Source: Podarcis gaigeae
Taxonomy: Eukaryota
Direction: 5' to 3' (one strand)
NCBI GenBank assembly: GCA_964106915.2
Contig: OZ066915.1
Length of the DNA stretch: 64,000 nt
The notes below the pieces were generated by a model, which saw only the letters and a program-made list of their open reading frames with translations, had not been told where the DNA came from and did not search any database. Positions 1-59,968 of this stretch are shown in pieces. How positions within the stretch are numbered: position 1 is the stretch's first letter; every line of letters starts with the position of its first letter. A program made the position numbers and the translations under genes.

Positions 1-1508
1 GCTCTGACTTTTGCTACACCCATGATTTAGAGAAGAGTATTTTTGGGCAGTGTCCAGGCTTGAATGTTGTAGTCAGAGAAAGAAAGAGGGGGCCTCCTAG
101 GAGAGTGAGAAAGCAATAAATCTATACAAAGGTCAGTTAGTTGTTAGCTTCTTCTGCAACGTGAATGTTCTATTCCAAGGGGTCCAACTAAACATCTCAC
201 CTCTCATTTGAAAACTTTAATGTTCAGCAGCCAAACCTGAGAGCAGAAACTAAGTTGGTCTCTAAGCGCTCTTAAAAGGGAAACAGAAACACCATAGGTT
301 CATGTGAATAATAAGTTTTATTGTTACAAGCAATATTGTGACAATAACAGCTTTAGGAAATCTGATCACTGAAGGCTTTCTTCTAACATAGAAGCCAGCA
401 CCTGACAACACTTGGGCCAAATACAATCCGCTAAACCATGCAATCTCTCTGCCTGCATCCCTGGTTGCTAAACTCAGAGGAAACACAAGAGTTTAAATTA
501 CCAGTGTCTATAGCAATGGAATGGTAGCAGATAGCAATGGGTAGCAGAACATTTCGAGGTGTTGGGTTTAGGGTCCATGGATAGCTGCCACTCCCAACTT
601 CTCTACTCATCTTAAAGTGACCCTCCAAAAATAATAATCTTAATTTTAATTTAATTCAATTTTAGATTTACCCACCCTTCACCACAAGGTCCCAGGGCAA
701 GTTACAACAATATAAAAATACAATATTAAAACAATTTAGACCAAATTGCTGGCAAGGACTCTTTCAAGAACTTACTCATTCCTGACCCTGAACCACACTA
801 TTTGATATTCACTGTGATTGATGAGCTGAATTAATTTGCTTAGTAATAACTCTGCCATTACTTAGTTAGGCTTTGGAGACAACTGGCATTCTCTCCTTAG
901 AGAAGCCGAGCTGAAAAATGGAATAGTCCCCAGGTGTAGTCTTATTATTAGGCTTGTGTGTGTTGTATTTACTTTTATAGATGTTCTTGTGATTGTCCAT
1001 GCAAATAATTGAGGAAGGGGAAAGATGTACAACTGCTTGCTCCTTGCTTGAGAGTGTCACAGCCCTTGGTCTCACTGGGCAGTTGCATTGCCTTAAGCGT
1101 TCACAGGGAGCATATTGAAAGAAAACAACCCTTTTTTCTCATCCTACTCTCACTCACTGAGGTCTGTTTCTGGCCAGTGGAAACAAATCCCATGGGCCTC
1201 TGAAAATTTGATCTCAGCTGTTTTCACTGACATAAGGCGACAAGACCTGCCACTTTATCCCCATTTCAGAAGGCAAAATGCATAAATAAAAGCCCCCTAG
1301 CTAGTTTAGTTTTGCAATCCCCATCACAAGAGCTGGAATGCACCCAAAAGGTAATCAGGACCTGACTGGGGCAGGAGGGTGGGGGAATAGAAAAGGTGGA
1401 TAAATCTCTGTTCTCGTTGCTGTTGCTTCCGTCGTGATTGAATGTTGTCACCTGTTTGCTGCTGTGTGGCTGTTCCTTTTCGTCCTTTGTTTTGTTCTTT
1501 CTTTATAG

Positions 1509-1604
<96 letters not shown>

Positions 1605-2332
1605 TGATGGTGGGGATGGCATTCTGGGGGTGGGAGGCATTCTGCAGGGAGTGGGAAGCAAGAACTGAAACATGAAGTTTTCATCCCATTGAACTGCATC
1701 CTTAACTAGGATAGGGGCTGGAGAATCCAGAGAATGGCAGTAAAGGCCCAAGTAAACATTATTTATTGGCTGCCAATGAACATAGTGCAGTGTTCCCTTT
1801 CTTCTTCAAGAACAGATTCTCAAAAGTGCATAACAGCCGCTCCCACATTTTCAATAACTCTTCAGTAAAATATGTATATTTGTGACAATCCTTGTTGTTG
1901 CTCAGCAAAAGATGTAGGCTTCTTCCAAGGCCTTGACACTGGTATTTATTGGGAATTTCTCAAATTAGATAGTTACCGACTTAAAGATGCCAAAGTCACT
2001 CCATCGTATTGTTTACACCAGCATTAACCCATAATCTTTGTAATAAGTTATAAATGCTGGATCCTTTCATTATGGCATTTGCCATCACCTGAAACAATAG
2101 AGTACGAAGGGCCACTTTTCACTTTACAGTGTGGATGCACAGATTAAAAGAATTAGTAACTACTACAACCATTTCCAAACTAGTGGGCCACAGCATTCTA
2201 GTGTGCCAAAAGAGAATCACTGATATGCTTCAAGAAATGAAATGATTCAGTTTCTTACTGTGAGCCCAAAGTTCCTGCCCACAACAGAGGAGGCTACCCA
2301 CTTCAGCCCTCCATCCTTCATTACTCAGGTGT

Positions 2333-2492
2333 TCATAGAATCATAGATTTGGAAGGATCTAGTTCAACCCCCTGCAATACAGAAATCTCAGCTAGAGCAT
2401 CCATGATAGATGGCCATCCAACCTTTGCTTAAAAACCTCCAGGGAGGGACAGTCGACAACCTCCCAAAGATGACCGTTCCACTGTCAAACGG
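2333..2492 (-). mobile_element. CR1 LINE 3' end fragment
   Basis: tcatagaatcatag tail followed by ...ggccatccaacctttgcttaaaaacctcc, homologous to the CR1 3' end at 23186. Confidence 0.7.
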
Positions 2493-3822
2493 TGTTGCTT
2501 CTTTCCAAGCAGCTTCTGTTAAGAATCTATAATTCTACCACATCTCTCCATCTGGTGTGATTGGATTATTCAAGCACTCCTCAGTGCAGAGATGCAGCAG
2601 AAACACATGTCCTTGGTGGAAGCTACATGTTACATCTCTGCATTTGTCACTGTTCTGGAAAGCTGTTCTCCTTCCAGTCAGGAAGCTTGGCCAAAACAGT
2701 GACTCTCAGAGAACACAACAGGGCAGGTTCCTTGGCAGGCAGGCAGTTTTTACTCTTACACATAATAAAATTCAACATATGGGGGGGTGTATGAGTCAGT
2801 GTACTTCCCATTTTAACTCAGAAACATGTACCTCCCCTTTAAAACATTTAGAAATACTGATATATTCACTTCTATTCCATAGCATGTTAGGTCATGTCTA
2901 AACATGTGTGTATATCATAGACATATGTGTCAGGGGAAGGAGAGGGTAACCATGATCATCTGCAAAATGTTGGATTTCCTCAGTGTAGCTGCAGTCGAAA
3001 GTAAAAGGCATTTTATCAGACTAAAAGTAGGTACACCGTAAATCTTTAATGTGTACCTCCTTTTGCTGTAATGTGTGGAATGGCCCCAAGTGGGATGGCT
3101 ATACATGGTCAAATCTAAAGCCACTTTACAGAAGTTTTTTATAGAGGCAACAACGGGGGTGAATCTTAATCTAAATAGATGCCATCACACAACAGAGCTT
3201 ATCCTCATGACTTCCAAAGAAGATTGTGTAAGGCCTGGCAGGCTATGCTTGGCATGGCAGCAGCTGGGGTGCCCAACTCCCTGCAGAAATCCTCTGAATT
3301 AGTTTTTCTCATGCACATCCCTCTGTAACAGAGTTCAAGTTGCAGAAGGGGTTTGCAATCAGCATTCCCTCATTTTTTCCTCTCACCCTTATCCAGCCTT
3401 CAGAATGTAACAGGTGGCTGGGAGAGGGACATACTAGGCATGCCTTGGGGCTAAACTGTGCATGACTTGGAAGCCCCATGACCAGATCTCCCGATATCTT
3501 CTCTCTTTTTTCTTCAAAGCTGCATCTGAGAGTGGGGAGGGTTTCTAATTTGACATGGGGGGGGATTCCTATTTTACCTTTATGTAGTTATCAAAATGTA
3601 TGTATTATTCACTTGGCAGAAAATCACTAAGCAGCTTACAAAAAAATCATTTTAAAAAGCCAATAAAAGCAAACAAGTTGACTTTTTTATCAAAATATAG
3701 ATAAAATCAACCATTTTAATAAAATTACATGCGAAAGCTGCATGTTAAAATTACAGGATATTAGCAGGCAGAGAAAAATACACAACAAAGGTGCCTGCCT
3801 AATGTTCATGGGAAGAAAGTTG

Positions 3823-4187
3823 TTTATTTATTGCATTTCTATCCCACCTTTTTCTCCAAGGAGCTCAAATTGGCATACATGATTTTTCCCTTCCTCATTT
3901 AATGCCCTTCAACAATCCTGTGAGGTAGATTAGGTTAAGAGGCAGCAACTGACCCAGGGTCACCCAGTGAGATTCATGGGAGAGTGAAGATTTGAACCCT
4001 GTTCTCCCAGGTCCTGGTCCAACACTGACCCAGCGTTTCTTAAACTTGGGTTCCCAGATGTTCTTAAATTAAAACTCCCACCATCCCTGACCATGCTGGC
4101 TAGGAATGATGGAAGTTGTAGCCCAACAACACCTGGGAACCCAAAGTTGAGAAAGGCTGCTCCAATCACTTCACTACACTGGCTCTC
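3823..4187 (-). mobile_element. tRNA-derived squamate SINE (Squam3-like, family name tentative) with nested MITE
   Basis: Reverse-strand head GAGAGCCAGTGTAGTG, B-box-like GGTTCAAATC, A-rich tail; interrupted at 4031-4159. Confidence 0.65.
4031..4159. mobile_element. Short palindromic hAT-like MITE
   Basis: TIRs CAGCGTTTCTTAAACTTGGG / CCCAAAGTTGAGAAAGGCTG; core aactccca...ggaagttgtag shared with copies at about 34481-34612, 44863-45000, 50250-50365, 51756-51868. Confidence 0.65.
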
Positions 4188-6792
4188 AGTGCTGCCATAC
4201 TGAAGGATCAATTCCATGTGAATCCTTCCTACCACCGTGAAGTTTCCCCATTCAAACAAAGGTCTCTCCCTCTAAGCTACTGGGGAAAGCCCATATTGTA
4301 CTTGTATTTTTGCCTCAGCTGGGCTAAAACCAGCTGAGAGGTAATTTCACTCAAGGAAACAGCATAGAGAGAATTTCTCTCCTCCAATGTTGCTTCCTTA
4401 TGCCGTTTCCCTAGTCAAAATAACAGTCCCTTTAAGTAGCTTTGAAGAAAAGTAAAAGAGCTTAGGGAGATTTGATCACGGATCTCCCATGTCATAAGTA
4501 GCTTAGCCCACAGTGAGATGTGGAGCAGGGGAAGATATCTGAATGAACATCCTGAAATGATACAGAGCCATGACAAATTCAGGGAATTGGCAGAACAACC
4601 CACCCATTCAAAGGCCAATGTGCTTCCAGCAGGAATAGACCAGGGAAACTGAGGCATTAACCTTGGAAAGGCTTCCATAAGTTTTATGGCACAACCAGGC
4701 ATGGAGAGACTTGTTTCCAATTGCCTACAGTAACTGCAAAATCCTTCTGTCAATTTTGTCCAGAACGCTTTGATGGTGATAATTTTCTTTATCCTTGGTC
4801 TTGGGAAGTACACAGCACAGCAAACTCTTTCTTACTAAAATTATTCTGTCAAGGTCTTTCCCAGAGAGTATGCATGCATGGCAAACTATTTCAAAATGCC
4901 CATGTGTGTGCACTGTATGTGTACCAAGGGAGCATATGTATTGCTTATGCACATTTCCTCACAGGTGATGGTGTTTAAAGAACACCCATTCTTCTAGATT
5001 TCTCAATATGGCATAGTGATTCATTTCTGTTTGACCTAAAGGGTTATTTAAATTTACTTTGACAAAGGAATGGCATTACACAGGAAACACTGAACAGTTT
5101 GGCTATGTACTGAAAACACTTCAAATGAGGATTGCAAAAGCTAGTGCTGGCCTTCAAAGTGTCTTGTCAAAGCAAAATGTCGCAATGTGGAGTGTTGCTG
5201 CTCAGGACGCTAACCACTTGGTTCCATCGCAGCCTCAGTTCCTACCCTCCAATAGTCTGTTAATGTTCTGTGGCCACTAAATATGCTCAGGAACCCTCCA
5301 GACTGCTGTGGGTGGGGGGTTGCATATGTGTTCTGCAACATGTCCTTGATGCATTAATAGTGCATTAGTGGTGGATTTATATTGTACCACCACACATCTT
5401 CTGTTTTTTAAAGTTATTCTACTATTCTTTCCCAGTGTTTTCTGGAGGGGCACTCTTGCACTATAGCACAACAAAAACAGGACCAACACCCTACCCCCTG
5501 AACAGTTGTGGTATAAAAAGTTACAGGATTTTGGCAAGACACTACAGGACATGCATAGACTGGAAACGAAGCAATATGTCTGCCCCAATTTTTTTGTAGG
5601 CATGAACGGTATCAAAAGCAGAGTAGCTGCCCCAGCATAATCATGAGCACAAATCATTAATGCACAATAAAAATATATCTAGAGGTGCAAGAAATCTCGC
5701 ACCACCATCCAAGGGCAGAACTTCAGTTAGGAGATAAAATCTGAGACCTTCCAGAGACAATGCAAAACTTCCAGTATAAATAGGTATGAACTCCTCATTG
5801 TGCTCCACATTCTGAATGGATCTCTTTCTTTAGTGCAATTTGTACAACCACCAATACCATTTTGGGTTATTATGCCTTTTTTCAGTCTTTTATCTTGGGG
5901 CCAAACTAGACCTGATGTAGGAGATTCATGATCAGGATCTTCCATGGTTTAGGCTTCTGTTTGGTTTTTTTCTAATTAGATTAGCAGTCCCATATGGGAA
6001 AGGCCTGTATGGGAAGTGGGTTTCCCAATCTAAATTCCCACCACCCAAAGGTGATTTAAAATGAACACATATGTTCTGCTTAGAACACAGTAGGTATTTC
6101 AACCCTGTGGCTGCTAGGTCATCTTTTTTACTACAGCTGTGGTGTAGATTTGTTCTGCCACTTATTCTTTATGGGTGATCTTTTCCAAGTAGTTAGGCTT
6201 CCACACATTTCCAGTACGCTTGGATGGCCATTTGTATGGCTGCTGTAAGAGCAAGTGAAAGTTACCTACAAGTAGCTTGAATTACAAGGGGCCTTCCTGT
6301 AATTGTACCTGGCTTTGCTTTGAATGCCCAGACTCTTTGAACACTGCAACTTCGTATTATGCAACTTTGTTCATATAGCATTTCTTTGAGTACTTACCAC
6401 ACTGAAAGATGGAGAAATTAGGTCACTCCAACAAGCTTCACATTTTAGAAGGTGGTAGTCTAAGGACACATAGTGCTCAGACTCAAAGAAGTGACCTCAC
6501 AGATGGGTTTTGAAGAACTGTGTTGGTAAGTAACTTTCTTTAATAGCACTGACTCATGGAAGTCCCTGTTCCAATATGTGCCTCAGTTTCCCTCTCTCAC
6601 TTACCTCCCAGAATAATATGGGCAGGTCAACAAAAGTTTTGTTTATGCTGGAAGCCTGTAGGTAAAGCCAAACGTGTAGATATTTTGGTTAGGAAGATCA
6701 GAATGCTAAAGTCATGGATTCCCTAAATTCCAGAAAGACAGGAGAAAGGGGTGAGTGTGGGAAAAGGGTGGGCTAGGGGTCTCCTTCCCCAG

Positions 6793-7122
6793 GGCTATGT
6801 ATGATATATAATGACTTTGTCTTTTGTCTTCTTTCCATGCTGTCTCTTTATATTGTTCTATTTTGGCGCAACACCCTCTGAAAATGTCATCCAATCAAAA
6901 TGCACTATGAAAAATCCATCTGTCCATCCATGAACTGGTCTGTGTGTCCATGCTAATGAATATTTCTGAACTTCCCTGCCCTGATCCCTCTCCCATCACC
7001 AAAAATGAAATCACTGCCTTCTGCATTTCTCCGTTTGCTGGTTGGAACTCAACTTGCGGTATTAAAACACCCACCCTTCCCTGACCTTCTCTGATCCTCT
7101 CCATCTCAATGTTTGCATCTAG
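6793..7122 (+). promoter_or_regulatory. Splicing control region of microexon 31a: ~330-nt AG-exclusion zone, YCAY (NOVA-type) cluster, UGC near the 3' splice site
   Basis: No AG dinucleotide before the acceptor; repeated TCAT/CCAT/TCAC at about 6887-7015; tttgcatctag. Confidence 0.7.
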
Positions 7123-7128
7123 GATCCG
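7123..7128 (+). CDS. CACNA1A: CACNA1A 6-nt alternative microexon 31a (IVS3-S4 linker), GATCCG = Asp-Pro
   Basis: tttgcatctag|GATCCG|gttggt; no AG from 6793 to 7120; YCAY cluster upstream, TGCATG at 7194-7199; one base different from the mammalian AATCCG (NP) exon at the same gene position. Confidence 0.85.
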
Positions 7129-9321
7129 GTTGGTTTGATTACTTTCTCAAGCCTAAGTGCCTTACATTAATCAAAAGCATCTTCTTGGCGCATTGCATGA
7201 TCTTTTGAGCCAAAGATGCCTGCAGTTTACTGGGCAGCTTCCGCTTTTAGTCCCCCCACTTACCCCATATTGTGTCACTTATTTTATTCAGATTCACATA
7301 TGGCTTCCAGTAACCCCATAGCAGGGATGTGGTATATATGCTGGCTGTTTGCCATAATAAACATTGATTGATTGAGGGATATGGTATAGTAATACTGCAG
7401 CCTTGGTGATGCCAATCTCTGAAGAGATGATTGCATTTAATCTAAGACTTGCATCAGTATGGATAGGCTTTCTAAAAGGATATGGTGGTAGATAGAAAGC
7501 TGTATCTGCAAGTTGCTGGGTTCTGACCCAGGGCCAGTGTCAGTTTCTGTCTGGGGGGAAACCTGGGATGGGAATTCAACATGCAAGTACCTTACTTGAT
7601 GACATACAAAACCTGATGACAGTTTGCATGGGTGGAGCATCCACCACAGTTGAAATACTACAGATACTTTGCATATCATCTGGCATCACCTCCAGGCACA
7701 TAGTTTTTGCAGTGTGTGCGCAGTCAAATAGAAGACCTAAAAATCCCACTTGTCAATAGCTATCTGAACAAGTACAGAAAAGCCCTGCACCCCCAGCTTC
7801 ATTCTGCGCGCACAGGCATACCCATTCACTCAAAACTTTTCACATTTAACCTTCCCTTAATGCATACAACTTTAGCTGGGTATCCACTTACCACCTAAAC
7901 ACAACACACGCAAACACATTTCCTCACACATGAACTGACCCTAAGGTCCTCTCAGTGATATTAGTATTCTCCATATACTTTCAGCCATGCACAGACAACC
8001 TCTGCTTTGGTCAGTTGAAGTAGAACAATTCCTTAGAAGAAGTAAAATATCATTATAACTATGGAAATTAGCCCAAGCCCATTTAGGAGTATTGAGAAGG
8101 ATATTAACATCCCTTTTCCTGAGAGTCAGTTGTGGAGGGTGAGTCAAAGAGAAATCCTTAATTTTATTTCTCTGGGCCACATTCAGTCTTACTTTTCTAA
8201 CAAACACCGATACTCCTCTTAAGATTAGGGTAGACATTAATTTTGAAAGATTGCATGTGCGTCCGTTTCACATATTTAACAAAATCTCAAGAGGAATCTG
8301 TTGAGAAAACGTCTTCAAAATGAAACAGACATATATATAATAAATATAAATCAAATTGAAACAGACACACATCACAGACACAATGCATAGCTTGAAGCAT
8401 TGATGCCTCCTATACTGGTTGGCTGACTTGGTACAATGATCTAAATATTCAGTTGCTGAAAGGACATTGCTACTTAAAGTCCAGCTTTTCTGAGGGAGGG
8501 TAAATTGACAGTTTGACTGAAGAAATCTTGGCCTGTAGTGAAGCTTAGTGATAAAGTGTTCAGAAGAAGGGAGGCAGAATGAATGGTACAGAGTAGGAAA
8601 TGGACTGAAAGCAGGAAATCTGAAGGAAGGGTTGATGAGCTAGGAAAAAGCAGCAACGGGAGTTGAGGCAAAAAAGAAAAGGAGGAGGTGGCAGTGAAGA
8701 TATTCACCAATGTGTAAGATCAAGAGGCAGGTGTATGGTGTATGTTTGGGGCAGGAGAGTGCTAGGACTGTTAGCCAAAAGAGACAGGATGAATAAAAAG
8801 TGTGGGGCAAAGTAGAGTGGACTGAAAAAATGCAATAAAATTTGTAGGTGGAGACATGGAACGGAACTGAAGAAAGTAGGATACAAGAAGAAAGCTGAGC
8901 TAGGACTGTGGATTTTGTCTGAAAGGAAATGGGCAGGCAAGAGAGGTTTGGAGGACTAGAGACAGTGGAACCGGGGGGGGGGGCGTGTTTCTAGATCTAG
9001 TCTGACACAGGTTTCCACCGGTTAAATAGTTTACTTTCACTGCATCATTGTGTCCTGGAATAAGATTCAAAAGGCAAGGGGCAGAGCTGAAATATATATA
9101 TTGGTTTAAACAAAAGAGCTAAATGTTTTGGCTGAAAGATTGTCAACTTAAGATATTGACCTTAGAATAGGCTTAAAAAGTAATGTAGGAAGTGAACTTT
9201 GGAATGCAGGTGGTTAATAGGAAAGAGAGAATGGTGTGTGGCACCATTCCTAATGGTCTGTGTGGGCATATATTTCCAACTGGAAATGGGTGTGGGTCCC
9301 CTGCCTTTCTCTCTTTCCCTC

Positions 9322-9437
9322 TGCATGAATATCATTCTTTGTTTGTCCTGCATGATCTGAGCATGGCAGTTTTAACAAACTGGTTTCACCCCATTGTATG
9401 TGTCACAGAGCCACCTCCACTACTGCCACCATGCATG
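9322..9437 (+). promoter_or_regulatory. RBFOX-motif cluster in intron 31
   Basis: TGCATG at 9322, 9349, 9432; GCATG at 9361; another TGCATG at 9673. Confidence 0.55.
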
Positions 9438-11020
9438 TCCACTGAAATCCCAATTAGAGGAACAGCCTTTTTGGAGGGTTGGAGAAGGATGGGCTTATAG
9501 CTTCTGGGAAGACACATGCAAACACATGCATATAAAGAGTGAAGATGCAGCAATTAGGTTTCTTTTTGGAAGAGAAAATAAATCCTATTACAGTACATGG
9601 ATATATTTGGCTGCAAGAACCACACTGTATGTCCACTGTGTTGTCACACACTTATAATGTCCACTGTGTAACTGCATGGCAATTCCTCAGTCTTTGTTTT
9701 ATAATTATAGAGCAAGGCATGTAGCAAGCCGGTACGTGTTGAGTGGTCACACCAATCTTTTGGCATGTGTATTGCCTGAGTCATTTTTGTGCAGTTTTCT
9801 TTGGAGTTTGTGTATGAGGGGCGCTGTAGCACAGGTACTTTCATGAGTCTTGAGGGAGATGTTGGTACAACTACATTCATTCCTGTGATGTATGTTGCAT
9901 AGATATCCCTACGCACTCAATCCGCCAGATCACTTGCACTGTTTAGTGTACTATGGTGAAGCCACATGGTAATTCTCTTTGGAACCGTTAGAGCCAGCCA
10001 GGTTGTCCCTTTACAGTGTTCTCATTGCTTGAACATGCAATTCGGGTTCCAGTGAGATCAAAGTGTGGTTCCATTGAGTTCAATATCGAAACCCAGGAAA
10101 CGTCCATGGTGCATAGATTACTAAAGCACTTAACCGTTCATACTGGGGCTAAAATACAGATTCCTGTTCAAGGGCTTTTGCCCAGGGATAAAGCTCATGT
10201 GTTTCTTACATGAGCTAAATATAAGTTGGCATTTTGTATCTAAGTTTATCTTTTTCTGTGCTAGGCCCTTCTTCCAACCTTTACTGGAACTCTTTTTTAG
10301 AAAGTGTCTGAAGGTCTCAGTGGTAGTTGCTAGAGATACACAAACACATACATCAATATTCTATTGTCCAAACTCAGGTGATATCCTAACCCTCAGAAAC
10401 CTTGGGCATCTTTCGCTCTCAGGGGCTGTGGGTGTCTGGCCATAGAACACTTTGCAACTAAGAAGTACATTGTCACACTTCAATGTATTCATTTTATCCC
10501 AGAAGCTTATATGCCATTTCCTCTGAAGGAGACAGATAAAAATGCATCTTGGTGAACCCAACAGGAGAATGTTTTTCCTATCTTGCCAGAATCACAAATC
10601 CTTCTTTTAGCTACAAATTTGTTGAACTAAGCTCTTCCTTCAGGGCTTGGGGTGTGGCTCAACACCTGTTGGGTGCACAGAACAGATGCATTTTCCATCG
10701 AGAATGATATGATTGCAAGTCTCCAGACATTTCTCAGCTCTCCTCTTCCTCACTGGCACTTGTCTTGCTTTCTCCTCTCTCCAGATTTGTGTGCACAGAA
10801 CATGTGTGATGTGAGGCCACACAATAATGTTCTGCCTGCTTGTGTCAAAAAATATCAGTGCATTTGGTTGTGGGTATATTTTTTAAAAAATGTAATCATG
10901 TGCTAATGAATTATCACTGATTTTCCAAATGGATGATTTTCCAAGTAGAGGGGTGGCTTTATTATCATGCTAATTTTCTTCATGTGTGTGATCCCTCTCC
11001 CTTTCTTTGCTATTCAATGA

Positions 11021-11299
<279 letters not shown>

Positions 11300-12814: not shown

Positions 12815-12930
12815 GTCTTTGGTAACATTAGCATTGAGATTGATGAAGATATGTCCGAAGATGAGAAACCTGCCATCACTGAGCACAACAATTTCCGCAC
12901 ATTCTTTCAAGCCCTAATGCTTCTCTTTAG
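12815..12930 (+). CDS. CACNA1A: CACNA1A exon 34 (IV S5-P loop): VFGNISIEIDEDMSEDEKPAITEHNNFRTFFQALMLLFR
   Basis: ttctcag|GTC...AG|gtgagg; 116 nt, phase 0/2. Confidence 0.96.
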
Positions 12931-13029
12931 GTGAGGCCCAGACCTTATTCATGTGCAGGAAGCCCACTTCATCTAGCCAAGGCCCTGCCCAATGCAAAAG
13001 ATGTACAGTCTCCTAGATGCAGGGCAGTA

Positions 13030-19446: not shown

Positions 19447-19608
<162 letters not shown>

Positions 19609-20558
19609 TGACTTACACTAAAACCTGCTAGCATCAACGGAATGAATGTTGCTTATGATTTCTTTAATATATATATTTCATATATATATATCTATATATA
19701 TCTGTACACATACCTATCTCTATATATTGCACTTTCAAGAGTAATTTAATGTAATTAGCCAACAGAATGCGTGAAATGATGCTGCCACCCAGACCAGTAA
19801 CGCATGGAGCATACCGGTTACCTTGAACCATCTCTGCTTGCTGTTAGCTGGAGCTAGGCCTGGAGGGTTCTATGAGTCTCTCTCTCTCTACTCACCTCCA
19901 CCACTCTCTGCACATTAATACTTCATTTGGGGAGGACAGAGACTCCATTGACACCTCTGCCATTTCCCCCCCTCCCCTCCCCTCCCCTCCCCACTTCTTT
20001 CCACCACCCCCTTTCCCTCCACCTTCTCTTCCTGCACTCTGCCCTCCTCCCACATTGGCAAAGAGGGGCTTTCTCATCTCAATCTGTCTTTCTCTTTCTC
20101 TCCTTCTTTCTGTGGATCTTCATTACTAAGAGGACCTGACTCTGCACTCCTTGGCCCTATAAGCCCATGGAGGATTGTGGTCTGCATTTATAACCTGAGG
20201 CTGAGTAAACTAGATGGAGGCACATGCTTAAGTTAAACCTGTCCCTTTTGCAATGGGAACGCTAGCTCTGTAAGTACGGAGCTTGCACTTAAGCATTTTG
20301 CTGGATCACAGCCAGTTTGAGGAGCCATCTTTCTACTCCCAGTCGTCCATGAAGATCAAGCATATTTGAACTCTTGGCTGACAAGCAGCACAGTAATCTT
20401 TACATTTTTATCTTCCATTTTTTTCTTTTCCAATTGATTTCCAATATTTTTCTCTTCTTTGCATCTCTCTCTCTTTTCTATTTTTCTGTGTATTTTTTCC
20501 TTTTTTAATTATTATTAATTTTTTTTGGTTGTTTTTATTTTTAATTTTTTGCTCCCAG

Positions 20559-20655
20559 GGGCCGGATGACTTTCATGGACATGTATGAGATGCTGAGACA
20601 CATGTCTCCACCCCTGGGGCTAGGGAAGAAATGCCCTGCCCGTGTTGCTTATAAG
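20559..20655 (+). CDS. CACNA1A: CACNA1A mutually exclusive exon 37b (EFb): (W)[32 protein letters not shown]
   Basis: ctcccag|G GGC...AAG|gtagaa; 97 nt; paralogous to 37a; long U-rich tract upstream. Confidence 0.95.
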
Positions 20656-47100: not shown

Positions 47101-47330
47101 ATCTGAGAATATGAGCTTCCAGCACTGGGCTGGGCTGGGCTGGCCTTGTGCATAAATGACCAACATTAACCTGACTGTTCTCTCCTTACACTCCTCCCTT
47201 CAATCCTTTACCACATTCTGGTTCCTCCACCCTCCCCTTTGGTCCTATATTTCCCTTTGCCTTTATATTTATTTCCTTCTCTCTCTCTCTTTCCCGTTTC
47301 TGTGTGCACCGTCTTGTATGGCTGCGACAG

Positions 47331-47366
47331 TGGAGGAAGGCGCGACCGCGAGGGAATAATCTCAGT
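47331..47366 (+). CDS. CACNA1A: CACNA1A alternative exon 44: WRKARPRGNNLS
   Basis: gctgcgacag|TGG...AGT|gtatgt; 36 nt; no AG from 47123 to 47328; resembles mammalian RRRGRPRGNNLS. Confidence 0.93.
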
Positions 47367-58690: not shown

Positions 58691-59968
58691 AAAAACAAGA
58701 GAAGAAGAGACAATTAAACTAGTTTAAGTCTTTGGTATAGATATGTTTATATATGCAGAAGCTTCCATTGCTGAGATCCAGAAAATATGGGTGTGGATGA
58801 CAATCCCTTCTGAATCAACATTACAACTACACACAAGGGCTCATTTCCAGTAAATGGTACAGAGGAAACTCCCTATTGCATTTTGCCCCAAGTGATATCC
58901 TCCTTTCCTCCCATTTCAGGAATTGCTTCCTCAAAAGATATCCTCTTGCTTAATACCTGTCCACCCTTCTTCACAGACACAGCAGGCACTTCACACACAG
59001 TCTTGTCTGATCCTGATCACCTATTGAGTTACACACACACACAATCACAATGTGTGTGCACAGACAAGTATTGTGATGTCTGTGAAACCCATTTACAATG
59101 TCCCTGAGGCATCACAACAGGAAACCACAAGTTCCTGTGGCTTGGACAAGGCTGCTTAGGCTATGTTCCTGCTAATTATACACATATTGTGGACAACATA
59201 TTTCATGGCACTTATATAGAGAAAATGGGTGGAAAATTCTGTCACCTTTATTACTGGAGTACATCCTCTTAATTGAATAGTATCAAAAAAATTCATTTCA
59301 TTCAAAGCTGAGTTCACACCTAAGGAAGTATGGGTTTGCAGGGTTTGATTTTCACAGGGCTTAGTCTGGATTCATTCTATTGCAGTGTTTGTATGTCTAC
59401 AGCTTTGGAACTGGAGCAATGCCAGGACTGCCAATTTAGTAGTGCAGTTGGCTCCCTCCATATATTAACCATATATTAATGCAGCATGTTACCCCATCTC
59501 CATTCGAAATATTATATCCTGTAATGGGCCAAGAAAACAAAGGCTATCAAACTCACATTGAAGCTCACAACTACATTCCTTATTTATATTCATAGTGTGG
59601 TACAAAAGCCAAAGAAATAATAAAGCCTACCACTTTAATTATAGAGAAAATTGAATAACATAAGGGTAGAGCCTCAAGACAGGGGTTGTGCCCAGCTTTA
59701 TGTGAACTGCATCAAAATTTTATTGGGTGAATGAGAATACAATTACTCGATGAGACTCTTCTTAAGGTCCTTTATTCCTTTGTTTTCCATTTATTCCCCG
59801 CACTGCTGCACGCCGCCCCTCCGTTATCACACACAATGTCATTTTCTTTGTTCCTATTTGTTTCCTTTGGACAATTTGGACGCTTTACTCGGGGTCTCCT
59901 GGCCAATCTGCCTTTATTTACATGTTTATTTCTGTATCCGTTGTGCTTGGCTCTGCTGTCACGGCGAG

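Follow-up and report, generated by a model that had tools for sequence, protein, structure and literature searches.

Intron 31 of CACNA1A in the window, the whole 64-kb stretch of lizard DNA that was analysed, holds a 6-nt microexon, GATCCG, which reads Asp-Pro (DP) and is very likely, on its sequence context, the lizard orthologue of a known alternatively spliced 6-nt exon. The mammalian counterpart adds Asn-Pro (NP) to Cav2.1 and is labelled exon 31a (31*); its nucleotide string is presumably AATCCG. Judged from sequence, the lizard element is thus a conserved microexon, orthologous to a well-studied exon, with one apparently conservative substitution and already part of RefSeq models. An exon 31a orthologue with neuronally regulated inclusion, an old squamate Asp and a conservative swap of Asp for Asn is, taken together, the reading that we consider probable. 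The features of the locus are listed in Table 1.

Table 1. Features of the CACNA1A microexon and its surroundings in the window.
Feature	Position	Strand	Basis or remark
CACNA1A exon 31 (IVS3, ends ...DILVTEFG), donor gtaagt	1509..1592	+	28/28 residues identical to human Cav2.1
AG-free zone, 328 nt	6793..7120	+	upstream of the microexon; 0/500 shuffles
Intronic element common to the CACNA1B microexon zone	6810..6928	+	core CATCCAATCAA...GAAAAA.CCAT
YCAY cluster, candidate Nova site	6887..6951	+	mild enrichment
Two branch-point-like words, CTGAC at -42 and CTGAT at -32	7081..7097	+	motif scan, predicted
UGC at -9 from the exon	7114..7116	+	motif scan
3' splice site TAG	7120..7122	+	AG itself at 7121-7122
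Microexon GATCCG, 6 nt, Asp-Pro, putative exon 31a orthologue	7123..7128	+	splice anatomy; DP in XP_032995645.1 and XP_015274358.1
5' splice site GTTGGT	7129..7134	+	CACNA1B microexon has the identical donor
TGCATG, candidate Rbfox enhancer	7194..7199	+	66 nt downstream of the microexon
CACNA1A exon 32 (IVS4, begins NNFINLSF after cag)	11138..11254	+	protein match

The host gene was identified as CACNA1A, in agreement with the initial annotation, by an IVS3 segment ending in TEFG, the acidic loop of exon 34 and a histidine tract near the C-terminus. Matches to CACNA1B and CACNA1E were located on other contigs of the same genome. Exon 31 corresponds to residues 1666-1693 of the human Cav2.1 chain 8x90_A, where the exon 32 sequence continues directly at 1694. 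Because NNFINL follows TEFG directly at this position, the solved chain represents the form without insert. Exons 34 and 35 were nearest to lacertid proteins (Zootoca, Lacerta, Podarcis), with small differences from each. Records from gecko, bird and turtle had a shorter, less acidic exon 34 loop (12815-12931) than those from lacertids, snakes and anoles (ISIEIDEDMSEDEKPAI). Two 35-residue matches at 19501-19605 and 20551-20655 (63% and 94%) covered the same part of one L. agilis protein, the pattern that a mutually exclusive exon pair, presumably 37a/37b, would give. In the RNA runs, many foreign reads fell on interspersed repeats of intron 31 (2330-2490, 3820-4160 and 5320-5650).

The splice anatomy was re-found as described in the initial annotation, with tag/GATCCG/gttggt at 7120-7134 (...tttgcatctag GATCCG gttggtttg...) behind an AG-free zone of about 330 nt. 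The preceding AG lies at 6791 and the next at 7121. No other gap on the window's + strand was as long as this one of 330, the runner-up being 208. When intron 31 was shuffled 500 times with its dinucleotides preserved, 330 was never reached, the longest gaps measuring 93 on average and 196 at most. Shuffling of the zone's own bases gave 10.5 AG on average and no AG-free result in 10,000 shuffles. The dinucleotide GA occurred 12 times inside the zone, as against the complete absence of AG. Intron 31 comprised 54 AG-N6-GT sites, and an AG-free zone of more than 47 nt was found only at GATCCG. The junctions of exons 31 and 32 are both in phase 0, so the 6-nt AG..GT exon between them keeps the reading frame, and the Asp-Pro translation given earlier was reproduced. 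The donor CCG/GTTGGT departs from consensus. The next GT, at 7133, was rejected as an alternative donor, since the exon would then be 10 nt long and shift the frame. The next longest AG-free zones of the window were 47121-47329 (208 nt), whose end is close to an exon match of 18 residues (47303-47356), and 59765-59967 (202 nt), which may precede the acceptor of the last exon.

Neural microexons of the SRRM3/4 type are preceded by an AG-depleted, pyrimidine-rich intron with UGC near the acceptor, and position -9 is typical of this UGC. The intron upstream of the lizard microexon was likewise AG-depleted and pyrimidine-rich, with UGC close to the acceptor. YCAY occurred 11 times in the AG-free zone compared with 6.4 expected from the intron mean, a mild enrichment at about the 95th percentile of sliding windows. 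Neuronal splicing factors would probably set inclusion through the AG-free zone, the UGC at -9, the YCAY motifs and the TGCATG at +66.

A paralogous cassette was detected in intron 31 of CACNA1B in the same genome. It reads tag/GACACG/gttggt, encodes Asp-Thr and lies on the minus strand at L022:4551-4556 (G000:C33:9376850-9376855). The longest AG gap of that intron, 246 nt, ends at the cassette, and the cores of the two microexons match in 14 of 16 bases. Local alignment of the upstream zones gave a score of 48, which was reached in none of 2000 shuffles (maximum 43); the remaining parts of intron 31 scored at most 35. The aligned element, which contains part of the YCAY cluster, is a candidate regulatory element. 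It can still be aligned between the CACNA1A and CACNA1B flanks, which introns of paralogues this old rarely allow. UGC at -9 was absent from the CACNA1B microexon, as was TGCATG within 350 nt downstream. Because the two paralogous cassettes have common flanks, a chance hexamer is very unlikely. Both microexons still have intronic sequence in common, which points to one ancestral Cav2 cassette that would predate the gene duplication. At the cassette position, human Cav2.2 (7mix_A) reads Glu-Thr and the Cav2.2 inserts of teleosts read TT. Compared with the human one, the lizard Cav2.2 paddle is changed at two positions, Asp-Thr for Glu-Thr and the start of exon 32 with DNFINL, not NNFINL. According to excerpts of the respective papers, Cav2.2 e31a codes for ET and determines the kinetics of activation (PMC2311404), is a short domain IV insert with an effect on activation kinetics (PMC10657410) and is promoted towards exclusion by Nova2 (PMC5633781).

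The dipeptide was surveyed in 410 gathered proteins, grouped by hand from their source names except for two fish records, which were grouped by sequence. TEFG-NP-NNF was present in 29 proteins, all from placental mammals by source name, bearing out NP as the mammalian dipeptide. TEFG-DP-NNF was present in two RefSeq models, Lacerta agilis XP_032995645.1 and Gekko japonicus XP_015274358.1, so DP is already part of database annotation. Squamates held 30 records, 20 of them covering the loop: two with DP, none with NP, 17 without insert and one mis-modelled. No two-residue insert was found in the Cav2.1 records covering the loop from birds (32), turtles (7), frogs (11), fish (5) and a marsupial (1), and no further xP insert was found in the best 150 of 429 matches among 50%-cluster representatives. 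The insert-free records do not imply loss, because most mammalian models also come without the insert. Annotation often misses 6-nt exons, so the insert-free records are compatible with either Asp or Asn in the ancestral amniote. When metagenome contigs were scanned for the pattern in search of host DNA, the 20 matches had dissimilar flanks and AG gaps of at most 47 and were attributed to chance.

The split between geckos and lacertids lies close to the squamate root; DP, carried by both, is therefore old and likely represents the old squamate state of a known optional exon. Since the gecko and lacertid models share it, DP is not confined to one species and is unlikely to be an assembly error. 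L. agilis counts as an independent sequence because its exons 34 and 35 are not identical to those of the window, and the G at 7123 appears supported by DP in two other species. The initial annotation had named an ancestral DP across non-mammals as what would remove the novelty; among non-mammals, this so far applies to squamates, by way of gecko and lacertid. Parsimony on the first residue, carried out by hand with paralogues included (Asp in lizard CACNA1A, Asn in mammalian CACNA1A, Asp in lizard CACNA1B, Glu in human CACNA1B, Thr in teleost CACNA1B), ended in a tie between Asp and Asn at the root because teleost Cav2.2 inserts are TT. All 11 frog Cav2.1 records covering the loop have Asp directly after exon 31 without an insert (TEFW-DNF in 10, TELW-DS in one), at the same spacing from the Glu as the Asp of DP. 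Beside the toxin-binding Glu, the frog proteins (P0119, P0149-P0159) thus show Trp for Gly and Asp for Asn, which may bear on the toxin sensitivity of amphibian Cav2.1.

RNA data were mapped to 1400-11200 from 4 of 10 runs that were RNA or guessed to be RNA, with tissues unstated. In a relative, X15, a contig of 141 nt at depth 19 has exon 31 spliced straight to exon 32 with GT..AG borders and represents the skip form. Skipping was thereby seen in one of four runs. The inclusion junction, which the initial annotation had proposed as a check, was seen in none of the four, in which positions 6959-7285 had no depth, exon 31 was without depth in X18, X21 and X23, and contigs drop minor forms. No exon 31 reads were present in two raw-read runs. 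Inclusion of the microexon rests on the two predicted RefSeq models with DP, which probably draw on RNA reads themselves.

Inclusion would lengthen the S3-S4 loop of domain IV from TEFG-NNF to TEFG-DP-NNF, and skipping would leave a loop equal to the mammalian no-insert form. The microexon adjoins the TEFG glutamate as annotated, its Asp lying two residues past the Glu of the omega-Aga-IVA site (PMC2229484, excerpt). The same excerpt gives a loss of omega-Aga-IVA affinity of about 200-fold or more for Glu1658Lys and cites a lowered affinity for an Asn-Pro insertion two positions past Glu1658 (PMC2229484). Omega-Aga-IVA attaches close to the S3-S4 loop of domain IV, by means of an Arg-rich patch and of its C-terminal tail (PMC12737659, excerpt). 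A change of toxin affinity by DP is possible, as a single charge could matter at a place where charge on the nearby Glu shifts affinity to this extent.

Ahead of a Pro, Asp and Asn are both able to cap turns or helices. Replacement of Asn by Asp would accordingly most likely be a conservative swap, with DP acting like NP through loop length and Pro, because NP cuts affinity with the Glu in place and the two residues are interchangeable before Pro. Relative to the skip form, the DP form would then shift gating and lower the affinity for gating-modifier toxins, and the extra charge of Asp would at most trim this loss.

A real exon in which Asp materially changes the paddle, partly restoring the affinity for cationic gating modifiers as a second acid beside the toxin-binding Glu, or shifting activation, and leaving squamates without the P/Q split of mammals, is conceivable and was rated unlikely. 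Such an effect would be in keeping with the strong charge effect of Glu1658Lys two residues upstream (PMC2229484), with the contact of the Arg-rich toxin patch to the domain IV loops (PMC12737659) and with the altered activation kinetics caused by the Cav2.2 ET insert (PMC2311404), all as given in excerpts. However, the literature searched yielded no measurement on DP, and NP lowers affinity although the Glu is kept, suggesting geometry rather than charge (from the excerpt of PMC2229484).

G as the first exon base fits the preferred acceptor context AG/G. The base might thus be kept to strengthen the acceptor of a 6-nt exon, with Asp as a by-product, an explanation we consider somewhat less probable still. 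Both paralogous microexons of this genome start with tag/GA and end with CG/gttggt, and the Glu of human Cav2.2 likewise requires GA. Inclusion in mammalian Cav2.1, however, takes place with A as the base at +1 (Asn), and the TT inserts of teleost Cav2.2 also speak against a constraint on this base.

It is doubtful that Asp restores the binding of cationic gating modifiers to the insert form, in which case the P/Q split in omega-Aga-IVA sensitivity would be a mammalian trait that arose from a change of Asp to Asn. The lizard paddles are acidic in both presynaptic channels (TEFG-DP-N in Cav2.1, TEIA-DT-D in Cav2.2), and an acidified paddle in both channels as a squamate trait, which forms part of this proposal, is equally doubtful. 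If the proposal were true, the lizard exon would be a natural experiment separating charge from geometry.

Adaptation of DP to the toxins of arthropod prey was judged very improbable. The initial annotation had placed the change in an animal that probably eats arthropods. This diet is plausible, since protein similarity indicates a lacertid-like animal and both geckos and lacertids, the two DP carriers, are arthropod eaters. Bats, tarsiers and tenrecs also eat insects. The residue is constrained in mammals (all 29 inserts are NP) and the site is a known spider-toxin receptor (PMC2229484, excerpt). Against this, DP is common to deep squamate branches and, in the insect-eating mammals, Myotis, Rhinolophus, Carlito and Echinops all retain NP. 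The skip form, which is the more sensitive one in mammals, is made by a relative. An added acidic residue is expected to attract a cationic toxin; if the charge of Asp matters, an Arg-rich toxin should be favoured, which is the opposite of resistance. Swallowed peptides are also unlikely to reach central synapses. A diet-driven change is thus unlikely, because the four insectivores keep NP and the skip form is made. The proposed adaptation of a lineage to its diet was not upheld: DP occurs in gecko and lacertid alike, NP is retained by bats, tarsier and tenrec, the equivalent residue of insert-free frog Cav2.1 is Asp, and the lizard Cav2.2 cassette also begins with Asp. An assembly error, or a dead remnant no longer spliced, is hardly credible, as the zero inclusion records in four RNA runs are set against DP in the models of two other species, intact splice signals, the AG-free zone and an element common to the paralogue.

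With the exon 31a orthologue and its conservative Asp as the preferred reading, the exon that underlies the difference in toxin sensitivity between P-type and Q-type channels would be retained in lizards, with Asp in place of Asn. Omega-Aga-IVA pharmacology established in mammals may not transfer to reptiles. The lizard exon offers a one-residue natural variant with which shape and side chain could be told apart as the cause of the NP effect, and the microexon alone does not indicate toxin adaptation. Passages of PMC11580629, PMC3210452, PMC7018710, PMC9864995, PMC10224840, PMC2234000, PMC13661669 and PMC3640536 contributed nothing further on the exon. The reptile DP form was not found in the titles and abstract openings searched, and may be recorded in subscription journals, supplements or microexon databases; on the channel type of the lizard neuromuscular junction, no paper was found in the literature searched.

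Three known systems are closest to the lizard microexon. Mammalian CACNA1A exon 31a agrees with it in gene, TEFG/NNFINL junction, length of two residues, Pro in second position and optional use; it differs by Asn where the lizard has Asp, and toxin and gating effects have been measured only for NP. The paralogous exon 31a of CACNA1B resembles it in 14 of 16 core bases, the donor, the long AG-free zone, the upstream element and an acidic first residue. Unlike the CACNA1A microexon, it belongs to another gene, encodes Asp-Thr here and Glu-Thr in human, and comes without UGC at -9 and a nearby TGCATG. The models XP_032995645.1 (Lacerta agilis, X23) and XP_015274358.1 (Gekko japonicus) are predicted proteins of other species, for which no functional study was found, and carry TEFG-DP-NNF in the same place.
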